64,000 bases of DNA from Dehalococcoidales bacterium (GTDB taxonomy: Bacteria > Chloroflexota > Dehalococcoidia > Dehalococcoidales > W693), in NCBI GenBank assembly GCA_034431095.1, contig DAOUDM010000019.1:13653-77652 (forward strand), given 5' to 3'. A model generated the notes under the pieces. The model did no database searches, had not been told where the DNA came from, and saw only the letters and a program-made list of their open reading frames with translations. The first letter of the stretch is position 1. Each line of letters begins with the position of its first letter. Of this stretch, positions 24,472 to 62,894 are shown piece by piece. Both the position numbers and the translations under genes were made by a program.

Positions 24472-24909
24472 CTATACTTCGTCAGTCTCAGCCGTCTTTT
24501 TAGCCCGCTTACTGCCGTATTTACTGCGGCCCTGACGGCGATTGGCGACACCGCTGGTATCCAGCGTTCCCCTTACAATATGATAGCGGACGCCAGGCAA
24601 ATCTGGCACCCGCCCACCACGAATCAGCACCACGGAGTGCTCCTGAAGCTCATGTCCTTCTCCGGGGATATAAGCTGTCACCTCCATGCTATTGGACAAC
24701 CGCACCCTGGCTATCTTGCGCAGTGCCGAATTAGGCTTCTTGGGTGTGGCCGTCTTGACCTGTATGCAGACCCCCCGCTTTTGCGGCGAGCCAGCCCCGC
24801 GTACCACCTTGTTCTTCAAGGCGTTGTAGGTAAATCTGAGCGCCGGCGTCTTGGTCTTCTTGGCGACCTTCTTGCGCCCTTTACGAACCAGTTGATTAAC
24901 AGTGGGCAA
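24472..24909 (-). CDS. rpsL: 30S ribosomal protein S12
   Basis: The conserved N-terminus [11 protein letters not shown] follows TTG 24909, with a GGGGGAG SD just upstream. The ORF-track start at 24963 adds 18 non-conserved residues. Confidence 0.9.
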
Positions 24910-25034
24910 TTTCTCCCCCTTCTCCGGACAATTTCGAAGGATGAGCCTTAGCTCATCCTTCACAAGCCAAATGAATCGACTGGAACTTTAGCCCAATCAA
25001 TAACCATAGCTGAAGTGGCTATCAACAGCCGCTA

Positions 25035-25064
25035 AGTCTAGCACAAACAAAATATAGATGTCAA
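25035..25064 (-). promoter_or_regulatory. sigma-70-like promoter for rpsL-rpsG-fusA
   Basis: On the minus strand this reads TTGACA (25064-25059), N18, TAGACT (25040-25035), with TGC immediately 5' of the -10 (extended -10). Confidence 0.55.
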
Positions 25065-25092
25065 CAGCTATGATAGCCGATGATATTGCCGC

Positions 25093-25121
25093 TTGACAAG
25101 CGCCCCATCCCGTGCTATATT
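25093..25121 (+). promoter_or_regulatory. near-consensus sigma-70-like promoter for the aromatic amino acid operon
   Basis: TTGACA (25093-25098), N17, TATATT (25116-25121). It lies about 235 nt upstream of the DAHP synthase ATG. Confidence 0.65.
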
Positions 25122-25148
25122 TCTATAAAAGAAAGCTGTGATTTAAAG

Positions 25149-25235
25149 ATGTTAGTTACTGCCAGCCCCCGTGGAATGAATTATTACGCGTATTTTACAT
25201 TTTTCTGGCGCACCAGTGCGCCCGGGAGGTTTTGA
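25149..25235 (+). CDS. candidate aromatic-amino-acid leader peptide (28 aa; or 19 aa from ATG 25176)
   Basis: Hand translation gives MLVTASPRGMNYYAYFTFFWRTSAPGRF*. Seven of nine consecutive codons (25182-25208) are Tyr/Phe/Trp. The ORF lies between the promoter and a terminator hairpin. Its SD is weak. Confidence 0.55.
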   Translation: MLVTASPRGMNYYAYFTFFWRTSAPGRF

Positions 25236-25274
25236 TTTGAAATCCTAGAGAAGAAATCATCGTAAATCCTTAAA

Positions 25275-25301
25275 ATCCTCCCGCCGGGAGGATATTTTAT
25301 T
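25275..25301 (+). terminator. attenuator terminator in the aro leader
   Basis: ATCCTCCC-GCC-GGGAGGAT forms an 8-bp stem followed by ATTTTATT. The upstream duplicate CCGGGAGG (25222-25229, at the end of the leader ORF) can pair with the 5' arm CCTCCCG (25277-25283) as an antiterminator. Confidence 0.55.
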
Positions 25302-25357
25302 AATAAGGGAAAGCCAGGGGGCAATTTATTAAAATACAGGAATAACGGGGGGAGAAG

Positions 25358-26434
25358 ATGATTATAATGGAGAGAGACGCCACATCGGAGCAAATAAAAC
25401 ATGTTGTCAGCGAGATAAAAAAACACGGATTGAGGGCTGATATTTCCAAGGGGGAATTTAGAACGATTATCGGCCTGGTCGGAGATGAAAGCAGGATATC
25501 CTTTGCTCACCTGGCCGCTCTACCAGGAGTCAAGGAAGCCAGGATGGTGGAAACTCCCTATAAATTGATTAGCCGGGAGTACAGCGAATTGTTTGAGGGC
25601 AAAGACGAGAGCCGTATCGTTGAGGTGGGCGATGTTAGAATCGGCGGTAACGAGCCGATATTCATCGCTGGACCCTGTGCTATAGAGAGTAAAGCACAGC
25701 TATTCCGAATTGCAGAAGAGGTTAAAAGAGCCGGGGCTCATATTTTGAGGGGCGGCATCTTCAAGCCGAGGAGCTCGGTGCACTCCTTCCAGGGGCTGGG
25801 TGCCCAGGGTAATGAAGAAGCCAGGGAGGCACTGACCTGGCTGCGTGACGCCGGGCAGAGGTTCGGTATGCCGGTAGTGACCGAGGTGAGAGGGGAGTCA
25901 CAGGTTGACCTGATAGCCGAGTATGTCGACATTCTGCAGATTGGTGCTAGGAATATGTACCACCAGGATATGCTCAGCCGGGTAGCCAGGAAGGGCAAGC
26001 CGGTCCTTTTCAAGAGGCATTTTGGCGCCAGCGTAGAGGAGTTTCTCTCCTTTTCCGAGTATATTGCCGCCGAGGGCAACAAGGATATCATCCTTTGCGA
26101 GCGGGGAATAGTCCCCATCGGCAAGGGTAAGAGCTATACCAGATACACCCTTGACCTGGCGGCAGTCCCGGTCGTCCAGAAAGAGACCTATCTGCCGATA
26201 ATAGTCGACCCCAGCCACGCCGCCGGCCGCCGCGACCTCATCTTCAGCATGAGCTGTGCCGCTATCGCTATCGGTGCCAGCGGCCTGGTGATTGAGGTAC
26301 ACTATAATCCAGCCGAGGCGCTGGTTGACGCACAGCAGATGGTAACCCCCGAGGAACTGGGTAGGATTATCGCCACATGCAAGGGAATCAGCAAGATGGT
26401 GGCATCTGATAAGAAAAGGGTTAAAGCGGTATAG
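25358..26434 (+). CDS. aroF: 3-deoxy-7-phosphoheptulonate (DAHP) synthase, type I-beta with N-terminal regulatory domain
   Basis: 358-aa ORF with a KDO8PS-like core (IAGPCAIES, ILRGG.FKPR.S..SFQG). A ~90-aa N-terminal extra domain is present. A GGGGGGAG SD sits upstream. Confidence 0.9.
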   Translation: MIIMERDATSEQIKHVVSEIKKHGLRADISKGEFRTIIGLVGDESRISFAHLAALPGVKEARMVETPYKLISREYSELFEGKDESRIVEVGDVRIGGNEPIFIAGPCAIESKAQLFRIAEEVKRAGAHILRGGIFKPRSSVHSFQGLGAQGNEEAREALTWLRDAGQRFGMPVVTEVRGESQVDLIAEYVDILQIGARNMYHQDMLSRVARKGKPVLFKRHFGASVEEFLSFSEYIAAEGNKDIILCERGIVPIGKGKSYTRYTLDLAAVPVVQKETYLPIIVDPSHAAGRRDLIFSMSCAAIAIGASGLVIEVHYNPAEALVDAQQMVTPEELGRIIATCKGISKMVASDKKRVKAV

Positions 26435-27508
26435 ATGAGGACAGTAAAGGTAAACCTTGAAAATAGAAGCTATCAGGTTGTCGTCGGCGCCGGCATACTC
26501 GGGCAGGCAGGCAGTTGGCTGAAGGAGGTCGGTGCTGTTGATAGGCTGGTGATTATCACCAATCCTGTCGTGCAGGGGCTATACGGCGACGGGCTAAGGG
26601 AGAGCCTGTCGGCTGATGGTTTTAGGGTAGATGTCTTGACGGTCGCCGATGGGGAGGAGCAGAAGTCGCTTGATGTCGCCGGCAGGCTCTATAACGAGCT
26701 TACTGCTGTCTACGCCGAGCGGGCGACGCCCGTACTGGCTCTGGGTGGTGGTGTTATCGGCGACCTGGCTGGTTTTGTCGCCGCCACCTACCTGCGGGGA
26801 GTGCCGCTGGTGCAGATACCGACCACCCTGCTGGCGCAGGTCGACAGCAGTATCGGCGGCAAGGTGGCGGTAAACCACGGACAACTGAAGAACAAAATCG
26901 GCGCTTTCTACCAGCCACGGCTGGTGTTATCCGATACGGCGATACTGAGGACACTGCCGGTCGGGGAATTCGCCAACGGCATGGCTGAAGTCATCAAGAG
27001 CGCTGTTATCCGGGATGGAGGCTTCTTTGCCTTCATAGAAACAAACATTGATAAAATAAGAGAACTGGACGATACTACGATGGAAGAAGTCGTTTTCCGC
27101 TCGGCTGAGATTAAAGCCAGGGTGGTGGAGCAGGACGAAACCGACCTGGGCTTGAGAAACATCTTAAACTTTGGCCATACGGTAGGCCACGCCATTGAGA
27201 CCGTCTCCGATTTCGGGGTGGAGCATGGCCAGGCGGTTGCCATGGGCATGGTGGCGGCAGCTAGCATCGCCCGGAGGATGGACATTCTTGAAGACGGCGA
27301 GCTGGCAAGGCTGAGAAGTGTCATTGAGGGTGCCGGTCTGCCCGTGGATATGCCGCGGCTGGATACCGGAAAGGTTATTCAGGCGATGAAACACGACAAG
27401 AAGATAGTCGGCGGCAAAGTAAGATTTGTTTTGCCCCGGGCGATAGGCGATGTCTTTGTCACCGATGAGGTAAGCCTGTCGCTGGTCGAGGAGGTTCTGG
27501 GGGGCTAG
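26435..27508 (+). CDS. aroB: 3-dehydroquinate synthase
   Basis: 357-aa ORF with AroB motifs (LGGGVIGDLAGFVAATY.RG, GGKV.VN, LNFGHT.GHA.E). Confidence 0.95.
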   Translation: MRTVKVNLENRSYQVVVGAGILGQAGSWLKEVGAVDRLVIITNPVVQGLYGDGLRESLSADGFRVDVLTVADGEEQKSLDVAGRLYNELTAVYAERATPVLALGGGVIGDLAGFVAATYLRGVPLVQIPTTLLAQVDSSIGGKVAVNHGQLKNKIGAFYQPRLVLSDTAILRTLPVGEFANGMAEVIKSAVIRDGGFFAFIETNIDKIRELDDTTMEEVVFRSAEIKARVVEQDETDLGLRNILNFGHTVGHAIETVSDFGVEHGQAVAMGMVAAASIARRMDILEDGELARLRSVIEGAGLPVDMPRLDTGKVIQAMKHDKKIVGGKVRFVLPRAIGDVFVTDEVSLSLVEEVLGG

Positions 27509-27509
27509 C

Positions 27510-28166
27510 ATGAAGAAGCCGGTAATCTGTGGCGTCGTTGTCAACAGGGAAATGGCAGCGATAAGAGAGGTTGAGCCGTTGGTGGATATGTTCGAGGTTC
27601 GCATAGACCTTATCGGTAGCGGCTGGCAGGGTGTTGCCGGTCAGCTTGAAAAGCCCTGGATAGCCTGCAACCGTATAGTCCGGGAAGGGGGCAACTGGCA
27701 GGGTAGCGAAGCTAGGAGGAAAGAGGAACTGCTCAGGGCATGTGAGCTGGGTGCCAGCATGGTTGATATTGAGCTTAGCACCACCAACCTGGAGAGAGTG
27801 GTGCCGATTATAAAGAAGAAGGCGAAGTGCCTCATCTCTTTTCACGAGCTGGAGAAGACTCCCCCTCTGGGCAGCCTGAAAAAGATTGTAAAGATGCAGT
27901 TAGCCGCCGGTGCCGATATCTGCAAGGTGGTCACCACCGCCCAGAAGTTCGAGGATAACCTGACTTTGCTTGAGCTCGTTGGAGAGTTCCCCGAAACGAA
28001 TATAATTGCCTTTGCCATGGGGGCTCTGGGATTACCCAGCCGTGTTCTTATCCCGTTGGTCGGCGGTGGCATCGCCTATGCCGCCATTAGAGAGGGTGGT
28101 GAGTCGGCACCGGGACAGGTAACGGTAGCCGAATTGCATAAGCTGTATCGGATGATAAGCCGATGA
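27510..28166 (+). CDS. aroD: type I 3-dehydroquinate dehydratase
   Basis: 218-aa ORF with the type I DHQase pattern (E.R.D, S.H....TP, K.V..A). Operon context supports the call. Confidence 0.85.
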   Translation: MKKPVICGVVVNREMAAIREVEPLVDMFEVRIDLIGSGWQGVAGQLEKPWIACNRIVREGGNWQGSEARRKEELLRACELGASMVDIELSTTNLERVVPIIKKKAKCLISFHELEKTPPLGSLKKIVKMQLAAGADICKVVTTAQKFEDNLTLLELVGEFPETNIIAFAMGALGLPSRVLIPLVGGGIAYAAIREGGESAPGQVTVAELHKLYRMISR

Positions 28167-29029
28167 TATCAGCCAGGACCAGGGTCTGTGGGCTAATAGG
28201 CGACCCGGTCGAGCACAGCGTGTCGCCGGCGATGCACAATGCCGCCTTCAGCCACCTGAGGCTGGATTATATATATCTCCCCTTCAGAGTGGGGGGAAAG
28301 CATCTGACAGGGGCTATTGACGGTGCCAGAGCTCTTGGTATCAGGGGACTTAATGTAACCATTCCCCACAAGGTTGCCGTCATTCCTCTTCTGGATGAGC
28401 TTGACCCGCTGGCGGAGAAGATAGGCGCCGTCAACACCATAGTCAATGATAATGGCATTTTGAAGGGCTATAACACCGATGCCGGCGGTTTTTTGAAAGC
28501 ATTGTTACACAGGGGAGTTGAGCCTCAGAATAGAAGGGTGGTGCTGCTGGGTGCTGGTGGCGCTTCACGGGCTATTTCCTTCGCCCTTGCCGAGAACGGG
28601 GCTGAGCTTGTTATACTGAACCGGCAACAGGAGATAGACTGGGCGGTCGAGCTGGCTGGCAGTATCTCACGGCTTTCCGGTAAGGAAGTAAAGGCTTTTG
28701 AGCTTAACGAGCAGAACCTTAGAGCGGCGCTGGAGCCAGCCGATTTGCTGGTTAATGCTACCAGCGTCGGTATGAGCCCCAATACTGGCCAGACACCGGT
28801 TGCCAGAAAGCTGCTAAAGCCAGGTCTGGTTGTTTTCGATGTCGTCTATAATCCAATTAAGACCAGGTTACTAACTGAAGCCGAGGAGGCTGGCGCCAGG
28901 ACGATAGACGGCATCAATATGCTGGTATGGCAGGGGGCTTTAGCCTTTGAGATGTGGACCGGGCTTAAACCCCCGGTGGAAATAATGAAAGCGGCAGCAG
29001 TTAAGGCGTTAAAAGAGCATGAAGACTAA
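28163..29029 (+). CDS. aroE: shikimate dehydrogenase
   Basis: 288-aa ORF with SPAMHNAAF, NVT.PHK and GAGGA motifs. Confidence 0.95.
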   Translation: MISARTRVCGLIGDPVEHSVSPAMHNAAFSHLRLDYIYLPFRVGGKHLTGAIDGARALGIRGLNVTIPHKVAVIPLLDELDPLAEKIGAVNTIVNDNGILKGYNTDAGGFLKALLHRGVEPQNRRVVLLGAGGASRAISFALAENGAELVILNRQQEIDWAVELAGSISRLSGKEVKAFELNEQNLRAALEPADLLVNATSVGMSPNTGQTPVARKLLKPGLVVFDVVYNPIKTRLLTEAEEAGARTIDGINMLVWQGALAFEMWTGLKPPVEIMKAAAVKALKEHED

Positions 29030-29534
29030 TATCGCCCTGATAGGCTTTATGGGGGCGGGTAAGACTGCCGTCGGCAGGTTGCTGGCTAAAAAGCTGGGCA
29101 AAAAACTGGTAGAGCTGGACAACCTGATTGAGCTTAAGGCAGGGAAACCTATCCCCGATATCTTTCACGAGGACGGCGAGGCAGCCTTTCGCCAGCTTGA
29201 GATTGAGGTTACCAGGGAGGTAGCCAGTAGCAGAAACCAGGTTATCGCCTGTGGCGGTGGTGTAGTCCTTAACCAGATAAACATTGGCCGACTTAAAGAA
29301 GAAGGGATAGTAGTCTACCTTGCTGCTTCCCCGGAGGTGATACTGCAGAGGGTATCGGACGATAGCTCGGTAAGGCCTTTGCTTGAGAATAACAATAAAG
29401 CCCTGACTATACGGGAGCTTTTGAGATTCAGACAGCCTCTGTACGAGCGGGCGGCAGATATTAGGATAGACACCTCAGAGATGGATGTTGAGACAGTCGC
29501 AGAACAAATAATAGCCAGGCTTGAAGAATTATGA
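29019..29534 (+). CDS. aroK: shikimate kinase
   Basis: 171-aa ORF with the P-loop GFMGAGKT and FR..E motif. Confidence 0.9.
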   Translation: MKTNIALIGFMGAGKTAVGRLLAKKLGKKLVELDNLIELKAGKPIPDIFHEDGEAAFRQLEIEVTREVASSRNQVIACGGGVVLNQINIGRLKEEGIVVYLAASPEVILQRVSDDSSVRPLLENNNKALTIRELLRFRQPLYERAADIRIDTSEMDVETVAEQIIARLEEL

Positions 29535-30787
29535 AGGCAGTAATCGATAAGAGCGAGATAAGGGGCAAAACATCTGCCCCTCCCTCCAAGAGCTATACTA
29601 TCCGCGGGCTGATGTGTGCCGCTTTAGCTAGAGGCGACAGCCGCATAATAAATCCCTTGAGCTCGGATGATACCGAAGCCGCCGGTGAAGTGCTGGGACA
29701 GGTCGGGGTTGATATAAATAAAGCGGATAACTCGTGGCAGGTCCGGGGCGGCAATTTACACCAGCCGGAGAGAGACCTTTTCTGCCGTGATTCGGCGGCT
29801 ACCCTGAGGTTTATGACCGCTATCTCGTCGCTTATTCCCGGCAGGTGCCGCCTGACCCCGGGGCCGTCCCTCTCCAGGAGACCGATAAAGCCACTGCTCG
29901 AGGCGTTGGCGCAACTGGGAGTGGACTGTTACGACGATGGCGGCTCGGCGGTGGTTTACGGCGGCAAATTGAAGGGCGGCGCGGTGGAAATGCGAGGCGA
30001 TATCAGCTCGCAGTTTGTCTCCGCCCTGTTGCTAATATCACCACTGGCTGAGGTGGGGGCAACCATTCGTTTGACCACGCCGCCAGAATCGAAACCCTAC
30101 CTGAGGATGACGCTGGATTGCCTTAAAAGATTTGGTATAGAGGTAAAAGCCACGGAAGATTTAAGGCAGTTTGATATATCCAGGCAAGAATATAAGCCTG
30201 TTAGCTATGAGATTGAGGGAGACTGGTCGTCAGCTTCATATTTTTTAGCCCTGGGGGCTGTCTCGGGGCAGGTTGAAGTCATCAGCCTGAACGCGGAGAG
30301 TTTGCAGGGCGACAGGATAATGCTAAACTTACTGCAAGAGATGGGGGCCCAAGTTTCGGTGAGCAATAATTCGGTTACAGTCCGGCAGTCAAAGCTAAAG
30401 GCCCTCACTGCTGACCTGTCCGACTGCATAGACCTGTTGCCCACTCTTGCAGTTCTGGCGGCGGTCGCCGACGGACGGAGCAGTTTCACCGGCATCAGCC
30501 GGGCGCGGCTCAAGGAATCAAACCGGGTTATGGCTCTGAGGGGTGGGCTGGAAAGGATGGGCATACCGGTTACCGAGGAGGAGGATAGAATGACGATAAA
30601 AGGGATGAAACCATCTGGCTCGACTATAGACAGCTTTGGTGACCACCGCATAGCCATGGCTTTCAGCGTTTTGGGCTCGGTAGCTGGTAATACGATAATT
30701 GAAGGCGCCGAATGCGTTGCCAAGACATACCCCGAGTTCTGGCAGGTATTCGAAAGCCTGGGGGGTAAGGTGAAGCTGGATGTCTAA
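29531..30787 (+). CDS. aroA: 3-phosphoshikimate 1-carboxyvinyltransferase (EPSP synthase)
   Basis: 418-aa ORF with PPSKS, LKESNR and DHRIAMAF motifs. Confidence 0.95.
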
Positions 30788-31871
30788 CAGTCTGGGTAAG
30801 CTGTTTACCATAACCAGTTTCGGCGAGAGCCATGGCAACCTGGTCGGGGTGATTATAGACGGTTGCCCGGCGGGGCTGGCTATTAACGAGGAAGACATCC
30901 AGCGAGAGATGGAAAGGAGAAAGCCGGGAGCCAGCCCGCTGACTACGACAAGGAAGGAAGATGACCGGGTGGAGGTTCTCTCCGGCATCTTCAATGGTCA
31001 CACCACCGGCGCTCCCATCTGTCTGGCAGTATGGAATAAGGATATTGACTCCAGCGAATACGAAAAGGCAAGGTTTTTACCCCGGCCGGGACAGGCTGAC
31101 TACACCGCCTATACGAAATACGGAGGCTTTAACGACTACCGGGGCGGTGGTAGGTTCTCCGGCAGAATCACCGCCGGTTTCGTTATGGCCGGTGCCGTTG
31201 CCCTTAAACTGCTGGCTATCATCGGGACTGAGGTCTTAGCCCATACCGTTGAGATAGGCGGTATAGTCGCCCAACCCAGAGAATCCGATGAAATAAGGGG
31301 AAGCGCTGATAAAAACGCAGTTCACTGTGCCGACCCCGGAGCGGCAAAGAAAATGATAGCGGCTATCGAAGAAGCCAGACGACAGAGAGACAGCCTGGGT
31401 GGGGTTATAGAGGGCATCGCCCTCGGACTTCCGGTCGGGCTGGGCGAGCCGGTCTTCGATGCAATTGACGCCGAGCTGGCGAAAGCGCTCTTTGCCATCC
31501 CTGCGGTCAAGGGGGTAGAGTTCGGCGCCGGTTTTCAAGCCGCCAGAAAGAAAGGCTCGGAGAACAACGACCCGTTTACTGTAAAAGACGGCAAGATAAT
31601 AACCACCAGCAACAACGCCGGCGGTATACTCGGCGGCATAAGCAGCGGCATGCCACTGGTGGTCAGGGTAGCTGTAAAGCCGACGGCATCCATAGCCAGA
31701 GAACAGCTGACGGTGGATATCAGTAAAATGACCGAGGCTCGTTTAGCAGTCAAAGGAAGGCATGACGCCTGTATCGTGCCCAGAGCCGTGGTCGTGGTAG
31801 AATCAATGATGGCGGTAACCCTGTGCGACCTCGCTATGAGGGCCGGGCTGATACCGAGGGTAATAAGATGA
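30780..31871 (+). CDS. aroC: chorismate synthase
   Basis: 363-aa ORF with FGESHG, RPGQADY and GGRFSGR motifs. Confidence 0.95.
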
Positions 31872-32959
31872 AACTTGAAGAGCTGAGAAAGAAGATAGAC
31901 GATGTCGATACCAGTATCGTAAACCTCATCGCCGAGCGGATAGGGCTTGCCGAGCAGATAGGCAGGGTAAAAAGGGAGCAGGGGCAGCAGATAGAGGACG
32001 TTCAGAGGGAAGAGAGGATTCTGGGGCACATCAGAGGACTGGCTAAAGATAAAGGTATAAAACAGGCGGATATAGAGAATATCTACCACCAGATATTCAC
32101 CGCCGCCAAGAGTATCCAGGGGGGCATCGTTGCCTTTCAGGGGGAGCTGGGGGCCTACAGTGAGGAGGCGGCGGTCAACTTCTTCGGCGCCGGGGTTCAG
32201 GTCAAACCCTACGAGAGGCTGGAGGACGTCTTCCGGGCGGTAGAGCAGGACGAAGTGCAGTTCGGCATCGCCCCCATCGAGAACTCGCTTGAGGGCAGTA
32301 TCAGCAAGACCTATGATCTGCTTCTGGACTCGGACATCAAGGTCTGCGGGGAGATAGAGCTCAAGGTCTCCCACTGCCTGATAGTCAACCCCGGGGTAAC
32401 TCTGGATGCCATAAAGAAAATCTACTCCCACCCGCAGGCACTGGGGCAGTGCCAGGCTTTCATCAAGCACCTGGACTGCGAGCTGATACCGACCTACGAC
32501 ACCGCCGGCAGTGTCAAGATGATAAAGGAGAAGGGGATGTCCGACGGCGCCGCTATCGCCGGCATTAGAGCCGCCGATATATACCAGATGAAGATTATCG
32601 CCCGCGGCATCGAGGATAACCCGAACAACTTCACCAGATTCTTCATTCTGGCTAAAGAGGACGCTCCGCCCACCGGCAACGATAAGACATCTGTGGTCTT
32701 TTCGGTAAAGCACAAACCGGGGGCTTTGTTCGGCTTCCTCGAGGAGCTGGCGGCTAAGAAAGTCAACCTGACCAAGATAGAGTCCCGGCCGACCCGACAG
32801 AAGCCCTGGGACTATAATTTCTACCTTGACTTCGAGGGCCACCGTGAGGAGAAAGCACCCAGAGAAGCCCTGAAAAACCTGGAGGACTATGCCACCTTTA
32901 TCAAGGTGCTCGGCTCTTATCCCAAGGCGAATAAAAGCAACCAAGGAGCCGGCAGATGA
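31868..32959 (+). CDS. pheA: bifunctional chorismate mutase / prephenate dehydratase (P-protein) with ACT domain
   Basis: The start ATG 31868 overlaps the aroC stop as ATGA. The protein has an AroQ chorismate mutase N-terminus (LRKKID.VD..IV.L), a prephenate dehydratase core and a C-terminal ACT domain (TS..F...H.PGAL...L). Confidence 0.9.
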
Positions 32960-33825
32960 AGGTAGCCATAATCGGCGGCTCGGGTAAGATGGGGCGGTGG
33001 TTTGCCAAGTTTCTACTGGATGAGGGCAAGGAGGTAGTGTTAATTGGTAGGAGCAAGGCAAAGCTGGAAGAAGCCAAGCGCCAGCTCGGTGTTCCGGTAA
33101 CCACGGATATAGAGGCGACCAGAGGCGCCGATGTCGTCCTGATATCGGTGCCCGTAGACCATTTTGAGGAGGTCGTGGAGCAGGTTAGCCCTTGTACACA
33201 TTCCAATCAGATTATCTTGGACATTACCTCGGTGAAGGCATTGCCGGTAGCGGCTATGCACCGCCATATAAAAAAGGGTCAGGTGCTGGGAACACACCCG
33301 GTATTCGGCCCCGGCGCCAGGAGCTTCGCTAACCACAACTTCGTCCTGACGCCGACGAATCAGGCAGAGTCCGCCCTGGCGGAGAAAGTAAAGAGCTATC
33401 TGGAAACCAGAAGAGCCAAGGTCCATCTGATGACGCCGCAGGAACACGACGATATGATGGCTGTAATCCTGGGGCTGGCTCACTATATCGCCATCGTCTC
33501 CGCCGATAGCCTGACAAACTTCGAACGGCTGAAGGAGATGGAAGCCATCGGCGGTATTACCTACAAGGTATTGCTGACGCTGGTGGAGAGCGTTATCTCG
33601 GAGGACGCCGATTTTTACGCCTCACTGCAGATGAGTCTGCCCAACCTACCGCAGATTCAGAGGGGCTTCCAGAAAAGCTGCCAGGAATGGGCTGACCTGG
33701 TGGAGAAGAAGGACAGGCGGGAGTTTGCCACAAGAATAGAAGCTATAAGAAATAGGCTTGAAGCGAATAATCCCGACTTCGGCAAATCCTACGACAACAT
33801 GTACAAGATTGCCCAGGGGCTTTAG
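32956..33825 (+). CDS. tyrA: prephenate dehydrogenase
   Basis: 289-aa ORF with an N-terminal Rossmann motif IIGGSGKMG and HP.FGP. Its start overlaps the pheA stop. Confidence 0.85.
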   Translation: MKVAIIGGSGKMGRWFAKFLLDEGKEVVLIGRSKAKLEEAKRQLGVPVTTDIEATRGADVVLISVPVDHFEEVVEQVSPCTHSNQIILDITSVKALPVAAMHRHIKKGQVLGTHPVFGPGARSFANHNFVLTPTNQAESALAEKVKSYLETRRAKVHLMTPQEHDDMMAVILGLAHYIAIVSADSLTNFERLKEMEAIGGITYKVLLTLVESVISEDADFYASLQMSLPNLPQIQRGFQKSCQEWADLVEKKDRREFATRIEAIRNRLEANNPDFGKSYDNMYKIAQGL

Positions 33826-35608: not shown

Positions 35609-35683
<75 letters not shown>

Positions 35684-62802: not shown

Positions 62803-62894
62803 TGGCGGAGGGGGAGGGATTCGAACCCTCGACCCCGGTTTCCCGGGGTAAGCGCTTAGCAGGCGCCCGCACTAGGCCACTATGCGACCCCTCC
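62803..62894 (-). tRNA. tRNA-Ser (anticodon GCT), CCA encoded
   Basis: The reverse complement is GGAGGGGTCGCATAGTGGCCTAGTGCGGGCGCCTGCTAAGCGCTTACCCCGGGAAACCGGGGTCGAGGGTTCGAATCCCTCCCCCTCCGCCA. It forms a class II cloverleaf with a long variable arm and anticodon loop CTGCTAA. Confidence 0.92.

Follow-up and report, generated by a model that had tools for sequence, protein, structure and literature searches.

In a 64-kb stretch of DNA from a Dehalococcoidia bacterium (Chloroflexota), referred to below as the window, the nine-gene operon for aromatic amino acid biosynthesis is preceded by a leader which, judging from its sequence, is probably a ribosome-mediated transcription attenuator sensing tyrosine and phenylalanine through charged tRNA-Tyr and tRNA-Phe; we give this reading a probability of about 85%. 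The conserved unit consists of a promoter, a short open reading frame (ORF) with a run of aromatic codons, a hairpin designated P1, a G-rich 3′ segment of the ORF, and an intrinsic terminator (Table 1). It is found in the window and in all of the related loci that were compared (80/80), and three of its helices show covariation. From these features we infer that the leader is translated, that ribosomes stall on it, in what kinetic order the RNA folds, and that the switch responds to the supply of amino acids. The element represents an uncatalogued family within an already familiar class of regulator and does not define a class of its own. An earlier note on this DNA had already pointed to the promoter, the leader ORF, seven aromatic codons out of nine, two copies of an 8-mer, and the terminator, all of which are present exactly where it placed them. 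The ORF and the alternative pairings, on whose conservation in relatives that note had made its model depend, are kept in the 80 genomes.

Table 1. Coordinates of the leader element and of the operon that it precedes in the window.
Feature	Coordinates	Strand	Details
Sigma-70-type promoter	25093..25121	+	-35 TTGACA 25093-25098, 17-nt spacer, TG 25113-25114, -10 TATATT 25116-25121
Leader ORF MLVTASPRGMNYYAYFTFFWRTSAPGRF, 28 codons plus TGA (25233-25235)	25149..25235	+	ATG at 25149
Regulatory codon run Tyr Tyr Ala Tyr Phe Thr Phe Phe Trp, codons 12-20	25182..25208	+	7/9 aromatic
Region 1: AUUUUUC (codons Phe18-Phe19), U, P1 5′ arm GGCGCA	25199..25212	+	
P1 hairpin core GGCGCA-CCAG-UGCGCC, between aromatic run and region 2	25207..25222	+	
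Region 2, antiterminator 5′ arm CGGGAGGUUUUGA, contains leader stop codon 25233-25235	25223..25235	+	pairs with 25270-25283
Region 3 UUAAAAUCCUCCCG, common to antiterminator (with region 2) and terminator (with region 4)	25270..25283	+	
Intrinsic terminator AUCCUCCC-GCC-GGGAGGAU then AUUUUAUU	25275..25301	+	hairpin 25275-25293
Operon aroF(FXD)-aroB-aroD-aroE-aroK-aroA-aroC-pheA(CM-PDT-ACT)-tyrA	25358..33825	+	nine genes, abutting or overlapping

The Conserved Leader and Its Aromatic Codons

The 80 loci were collected by a DAHP synthase search with one genome per species, and together with the window they make up the 81 leaders compared here. All of the 80 belong to Dehalococcoidia or Dehalococcoidales (Chloroflexota), with aroF protein identities of 68–91% in this search, and they include a Dehalococcoides mccartyi metagenome-assembled genome (MAG; L067) and Dehalogenimonas (L068 and L080). 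A separate homologous-protein search returned only homologs of at least 74% identity, and the known breadth of the family is Dehalococcoidia. A covariance model built from the 81 leaders, R1, recognizes exactly one element per locus with scores of 38–121 bits, and gives no further hit in either the window or 532 kb of related DNA; likewise, a scan for runs of any amino acid, together with the covariance-model search, revealed no second attenuator in the window.

The promoter in the window matches 11 of 12 consensus positions, has an extended −10 element, and is the top promoter-like site between 24 and 35 kb. In the relatives, 73 of 79 loci keep TTGACA, 69 have the TG extension of the −10 element, and 65 agree with the consensus at no fewer than 10 of its 12 positions. 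Transcription would start near 25128, about 20 nt upstream of the leader ORF, and aroF starts 3′ of that ORF at 25358. The identity of all nine genes of the operon, as assigned in the earlier note, was confirmed by Pfam: these are DAHP synthase with an N-terminal FXD domain, DHQ synthase, type I DHQase, shikimate dehydrogenase, shikimate kinase, EPSP synthase, chorismate synthase, a chorismate mutase-prephenate dehydratase-ACT protein, and prephenate dehydrogenase.

In nearly every locus, a short ORF ends 90–130 nt 5′ of aroF and carries runs such as YYYYYFYFSW or YYAYFTF. The best 9-codon window contains at least six aromatic codons in 69 of the 81 real regions vs. 22 of the 1620 dinucleotide shuffles (1.4%) that served as chance controls, and at least seven in 46 regions vs. 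none of the shuffles, while on the reverse strand six aromatic codons are reached in only 2 of the 81 regions. Loci differ in how many Tyr, Phe, and Trp codons they have and in what order, and the aromatic class is conserved. Summed over the family, the runs have 358 codons for Tyr, 177 for Phe, and 64 for Trp, and the leader is thus Tyr-dominated, which is uncommon among described attenuators. The leader frame holds most of the aromatic codons in 78 of the 81 loci, a count that is partly circular because the frame was picked from the aromatic window, and that is not relied on. An in-frame ATG lies mostly 5–11 codons 5′ of the aromatic run in nearly all of the 81 loci, and a start of MLV, MIV, or MIA is common to the window and its closest relatives (L001–L003). 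The earlier note had offered an internal ATG at 25176 as an alternative start; because the corresponding Met is absent from L001 and L003, the ATG at 25149 is favoured as the conserved start.

Mutually Exclusive Helices in the Leader RNA

The terminator of the window (ATCCTCCC-GCC-GGGAGGAT, 25275–25293, with the tail ATTTTATT) has an energy of −13.0 kcal/mol (z −2.9), which is matched by only one of 200 shuffles. Between the leader stop codon and aroF, every one of the 81 regions can form a U-tailed hairpin (median −15.2, weakest −9.8 kcal/mol), and only 2.7% of shuffled regions reach one as strong as the weakest of these. Its core is CCCUCC/GGAGGG, and the flanks vary by lineage yet remain complementary. 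On the covariance-model alignment, 10 of the 11 terminator stem pairs covary, and compensatory changes are seen in 16 of the 18 pairs of the terminator and P1 taken together. Neither MAFFT nor the covariance model fully resolves the register of the terminator stem across loop-length classes, so that the paired figures of 79–85% are underestimates and the hairpins found locus by locus are the better evidence.

The competing helix is the antiterminator formed by regions 2 and 3, which in the window has 13 bp with one bulge and about −14.4 kcal/mol. The earlier note had built it on the 8-mer CCGGGAGG, found at 25222–25229 and again at 25284–25291, and had both copies pair with CCTCCCG. The second copy does so only through GGGAGG(AU), its two leading C's being in the loop, and the antiterminator is longer than was then described, joining 25223–25235 with 25270–25283. 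In almost every locus, the best partner of the terminator 5′ arm plus loop is the 3′ end of the leader ORF, typically (C)GCUUGGGAGG. The equivalent of region 2 in relatives mostly ends 1–28 nt 5′ of the leader stop codon, which itself lies mostly within about 20 nt downstream of region 2. The median duplex energy of the antiterminator is −19.8 kcal/mol vs. −15.2 kcal/mol for the terminator, and 75 of the 81 loci beat 95% of their shuffles.

Covariation in the antiterminator is evident from several alignments. When RNAalifold was run on the plain MAFFT alignment of all 81 sequences, the only pairs that it predicted were four, each of them part of the antiterminator. In the 10-bp antiterminator core on the MAFFT alignment, 88.5% of the cells are paired, compared with 40–64% when the 3′ partner columns are slid; double-change cells number 66 vs. 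23.8 ± 3.8 in shuffles (0 of 500 shuffles reached the observed number), and 7 of the 10 core pairs carry changes on both sides (7–8 when the covariance-model alignment is counted as well). The pairs between region 2 and the terminator loop are the most telling, because the terminator itself leaves the loop unconstrained, and these also covary: for example, one is UA 35, GC 17, and CG 10 times, and another UA 42, UG 14, and CG 12 times. The covariance-model alignment agrees, in that the varying positions of region 3 are matched in both region 2 and region 4. Such matched variation in regions 2, 3, and 4 is the signature expected of two mutually exclusive helices.

P1 is conserved as well, with compensatory changes in six of its seven pairs on the covariance-model alignment. 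Around P1 in the window, AUUUUUC (25199–25205) can pair with GGGAGGU (25224–25230) across a U-C mismatch, and the hairpin extended in this way has −14.5 kcal/mol (z −2.1; segment 25195–25240). Folded as transcripts that stop short of region 3, 61 of 80 loci have the G-rich core of region 2 paired to upstream sequence, and in 56 of these 61 that partner lies over the aromatic codons. As modelled, this 1:2 pairing would be the classical anti-antiterminator, with region 1 on the regulatory codons, and would complete the scheme of 1:2, 2:3, and 3:4 pairings; the earlier account was incomplete because the pairing of AUUUUUC with GGGAGGU was missed. It is also observed that P1 ends 11 nt before U25233/G25234 with a G at −10, matching the G−10/Y−1/G+1 geometry of hairpin-stabilized pause sites, and that the family consensus has a CUUUGG-like motif 3′ of GGGAGG. 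P1 may act as a transcriptional pause hairpin, coupling the ribosome to RNA polymerase.

Proposed Mechanism and Folding with Ribosomes

In the proposed mechanism, the RNA would consist of region 1 (Phe codons plus the P1 5′ arm), region 2 (the P1 3′ arm plus the antiterminator 5′ arm), a spacer of about 35 nt, region 3 (AAAAUCCUCCCG), and region 4 (the terminator 3′ arm) with the U-tract, in this order. When Tyr and Phe are plentiful, the ribosome would reach the stop codon and mask region 2, regions 3 and 4 would pair, and transcription would terminate near 25298–25301. When Tyr or Phe is scarce, the ribosome would stall at 25182–25208, occupying region 1 and leaving region 2 free to capture region 3 as it emerges, by which the terminator would be blocked and the nine-gene aro-pheA-tyrA operon transcribed. 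If the leader is not translated, region 1 would sequester region 2, and termination would be favoured.

The geometry of the window is consistent with these steps. A ribosome with a Tyr or Phe codon in the A site (25182–25205) extends to about 25217 at most and disrupts region 1, with 25223–25235 staying free, and a ribosome with the TGA in the A site covers about 25218–25245, i.e., all of region 2. The logic put forward in the earlier note, in which a stalled ribosome frees the first GGGAGG copy and a ribosome at the stop codon masks it, fits this geometry and is conserved with covariation in the 80 genomes. Full-length equilibrium folding, in which the terminator wins in most states, cannot discriminate between models, and therefore transcripts cut before region 4 and before region 3 were folded instead. 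With the RNA ending ahead of region 4, folding yields the antiterminator as the minimum-energy structure for 79 of the 81 leaders when a ribosome is stalled mid-run, and for 76 when it is stalled at the last Tyr or Phe codon. At full length, the terminator is found in 81 of 81 with a ribosome at the stop codon and in 73 of 81 with no ribosome.

Several observations weigh against such an attenuator. The weakness of the leader Shine-Dalgarno sequence, noticed earlier for the window (GUGAU, −5.8 kcal/mol), proved to be family-wide, the median being −4.0 kcal/mol compared with −9.8 for aroF and −3.3 for random 15-mers. Because it is no better than random, efficient translation of the leader is assumed rather than evident, and it is this, together with a function inferred from sequence, that leaves our remaining doubt. 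In RNAs cut before region 4 and free of ribosomes, the antiterminator is the minimum-energy structure in 47 of the 81 leaders and region 2 is sequestered in 32, so the predicted branch from no translation to termination is not robust in every relative. Full-length RNA at equilibrium prefers the terminator in 57–65 of the 81 leaders even with a stalled ribosome, and for this reason the switch would have to work co-transcriptionally, under kinetic control, as classical attenuators do. The stability of the whole leader is not unusual vs. shuffles (z −0.58). Furthermore, kinship of sequences can beat shuffles without any structure, a bias which the slid-column controls and the covariation in the loop mitigate and do not remove.

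A Putative Wider Regulon in Metagenomic Contigs

A metagenome pattern scan spanning regions 2 and 3 gave 80 further loci, in 26 of which R1 recognizes 28 elements; the other 54 loci are chance matches with neither leader nor U-tail and were discarded. Of the 28 elements, 18 precede aroF and 10 precede other genes. For example, a pheS gene is preceded by an element (L090:8544–8686, −) with a short Phe-only leader, MSLCEVSRHFKVNFIFKER, whose stop codon is inside the P1 region; this element is an analogue of the Escherichia coli pheM-pheST attenuator. Tyr-rich leaders are found 200–290 nt upstream of Peripla_BP_6 amino acid ABC binding proteins on two contigs (L156:3264–3398, + and L138:1888–2021, +), and these systems are candidates for aromatic amino acid uptake within the same regulon. 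Further targets are an HMGL-like enzyme, an opine-dehydrogenase-like enzyme, and a metallo-beta-lactamase.

Family III CoA-transferases are preceded by five elements on three contigs (L127:647–789 and 2123–2266, +; L153:2412–2559 and 980–1113, −; L128:1257–1393, +). In L127 and L153, each of two adjacent CoA-transferase paralogs has its own element, one with a Phe-type leader (SWSLFTSFTF or ALFFANFIF) and the other with a Tyr-type leader (DYYYAYYF or QVYYYTYF). Identity between these two independent contigs is 83% for the paralogs with Phe-type leaders and 80% for those with Tyr-type leaders, compared with 66% across types. In L127, the only contig long enough, the CoA-transferases are followed by two HGD-D-type dehydratase subunits (2-hydroxyacyl-CoA dehydratase/benzoyl-CoA reductase-like) and an activase; for this CoA-transferase/dehydratase cluster, every NCBIfam hit is below the curated cut-off. 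Because control by the cassette would be starvation-induced, a role of the L127 cluster in acquiring Phe and Tyr, rather than in fermenting them, is suggested. A ribosomal L10 leader is also present near the CoA-transferase genes on the L153 contig (6845–6964, −).

It is conceivable, although we would put it at somewhat below even odds, that the element is a mobile modular cassette which spread in Dehalococcoidia and built up an aromatic regulon, the RNA switch being kept constant and the leader codons retuned for each gene. If so, the cluster of CoA-transferases, dehydratase-like subunits, and activase would supply Phe and Tyr, by salvage or by synthesis from aryl acids. On another contig (L152:1717–1864, +), a short ORF, MIIITETDATPEQIIARRGGTGT, lies about 100–170 nt downstream of the element, between the terminator and the HMGL-like gene, and resembles the N-terminus of the DAHP synthase of the aro operon, MIIMERDATSEQI. 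Judged by this resemblance, it looks like a remnant, the cassette having been copied together with the start of aroF.

Alternative Explanations

One alternative, which seems very unlikely to us, is that the leader is translated and that the signal is arrest by the nascent peptide in response to a free amino acid or metabolite, as in TnaC, instead of tRNA charging. The C-terminal peptide is indeed partly conserved (WR..CAWEALV, SAGEGFV), but the conserved residues coincide exactly with the RNA-constrained P1 and region 2. The aromatic class is the only peptide conservation that is independent of the RNA, a pattern usual for hungry-codon sensing and unusual for arrest peptides. Moreover, the regulated genes make Tyr and Phe, so that induction by an excess of them would be counter-productive.

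Another is a terminator/antiterminator switch set by a trans-acting RNA-binding protein, a tRNA, or a small ligand (T-box, TRAP-like, or riboswitch), with the apparent ORF as a by-product of a U/A-rich recognition sequence, which we consider about as improbable. No covariance-model match to the T-box (RF00230) or to a riboswitch, both of which the earlier note had kept in view, was obtained on the leader at E ≤ 10 (positions 24950–25420), nor at the gathering threshold in 19 relatives. A chain of (G/U)AG triplets, of which TRAP-type sites have nine to eleven spaced by 2–3 nt, is absent, the longest in 25128–25357 being a single triplet. The UAU/UAC/UUU repeats could in principle act as a nucleotide motif, and the Shine-Dalgarno sequence, weak throughout the family, speaks for such a model; however, nearly all loci keep the in-frame ATG and the stop codon that flank region 2, and P1 is the sole conserved structure between the run and region 2. 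Also in its favour, T-boxes do serve trpE and a trpB-like gene in Dehalococcoides (PMC2494555). Against all of this stands the behaviour of the leader in the wider set of elements, where its codons are Phe-rich or Tyr-rich depending on the gene that follows and the RNA module does not change, as codon sensing predicts and as a nucleotide-motif or protein-binding model does not.

That the small ORF and the duplicated 8-mer are coincidental and the hairpin is a terminator or stabilizer of an upstream or antisense transcript, as might be argued from the shortness of the 8-mer repeat, the unremarkable overall fold, and the divergent S12 gene only about 130 nt upstream of the promoter, is effectively refuted by the comparative data, since the whole unit is kept in 81 of 81 loci that are not near-identical copies, has covariation in three helices and its own conserved promoter, and is always the immediate 5′ neighbour, in the same orientation, of aroF or of some other gene related to amino acids.

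Relation to Known Attenuation Systems

Leader-peptide attenuation is textbook knowledge for trp, phe, his, thr, leu, and ilv genes in Proteobacteria. Reports from Actinobacteria and Firmicutes exist as well (PMC1262725, PMC2965389, PMC10272879), and the statement in the earlier note that it is placed mainly in Proteobacteria thus overstates the novelty of the present case. At the gathering thresholds of Rfam 15, two tRNAs are the only matches in the window, and no leader is matched in the 19 relatives. The best permissive match is Phe_leader (RF01859) at 25175–25301, with 24.5 bits against a threshold of 55 and an E-value of 0.072 on 471 nt; the element is not a member of this family, because the score is below the threshold and the alignment rests on the ATG and the terminator only. 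A literature search found no description of the element, although Lopatovskaya et al. (2010) or the candidate table of Narunsky et al. (2024) could mention it; the latter study scanned D. mccartyi 195 and reports eight candidate upstream ORFs.

The nearest functional precedent, by functional analogy only, is the aroR-aroF attenuator of Corynebacterium glutamicum, in which the aroR leader (Phe-Tyr-Phe) attenuates aroF (PMC11802643, citing Neshat 2014). Both systems have mixed aromatic leader codons, a DAHP synthase gene at the first position of the operon, and hosts outside Proteobacteria. Unlike the actinobacterial leader with its three regulatory codons, the Chloroflexota element has runs of 5–9; Tyr supply is reportedly without effect on aroR (PMC11802643), whereas the leaders described here are Tyr-dominated; and the operon here spans the whole common pathway plus pheA and tyrA.

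The E. coli pheL-pheA system shares the four-region logic, Phe codons in region 1, and a GC-rich CCUCCC/GGGAGG-like terminator; its leader is, however, Phe-only and controls a single gene, and the present element differs in both respects. Similarly, trpL, hisL, thrL, and leuL of E. coli and Salmonella resemble it in having a short ORF with tandem codons for the end product, the 1:2, 2:3, and 3:4 pairings, a stop codon placed for masking of region 2, and an intrinsic terminator. The present element departs from these leaders in several ways: the terminator loop is an additional partner of region 2, the leader has a weak Shine-Dalgarno sequence, the amino acids sensed at once would number two or three, and the 1:2 pairing is wobble-rich (UUUUUC with GGGAGG) and absent from about one quarter of the relatives.

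The T-boxes reported on trpE and the trpB-like gene of Dehalococcoides operate in the same organisms and the same metabolic area, and also read out tRNA charging through a terminator and an antiterminator (PMC2494555). In contrast to the present element, which lacks a T-box signature, a T-box binds uncharged tRNA directly and has no ORF. Together with these published trp T-boxes, our results suggest that the aromatic pathway of Dehalococcoides is split between two sensors of tRNA charge, the Trp branch being controlled by T-boxes and the common pathway and the Phe and Tyr branches by leader peptides.

Implications

The mechanism will be unsurprising to specialists; the value of the case lies in the breadth of conservation, in the Tyr-dominated leader, and above all in the gene-matched leader variants. 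Classical leader-peptide attenuation would be extended to Chloroflexota, a phylum in which no report of it was found. With more than 100 instances seen, the family has covariation clear enough for an Rfam-type entry. The element would offer a regulatory handle on the whole shikimate, Phe, and Tyr pathway in the organohalide-respiring Dehalococcoides and Dehalogenimonas and in uncultured marine relatives, where little regulation is known. Furthermore, the other sites of the cassette may serve as functional annotation, marking genes needed under Phe or Tyr starvation, including the radical dehydratase cluster.

Neighbouring Genes and Additional Observations

Within the operon, pheA, when its ORF is taken to begin at a GTG, shares 49 nt with the end of aroC (31823–31871), and the real start codon may be further downstream, because the chorismate mutase domain begins only at residue 21. 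The divergent gene upstream of the aro promoter encodes ribosomal protein S12 (24472–24963, −) as an ORF of 163 amino acids from a GTG; its true start is probably further inside, since the Pfam match begins at residue 57. Two minus-strand promoter-like sites overlap the aro promoter region (25035–25099, −). The two tRNA genes that are the sole matches at Rfam gathering thresholds in the window are located at 35612–35683 (−) and 62806–62894 (−). In the D. mccartyi MAG, the strand opposite the aro leader carries a molybdenum cofactor (Moco)/tungsten riboswitch about 170 nt upstream of that leader (L067:2539–2658, −).

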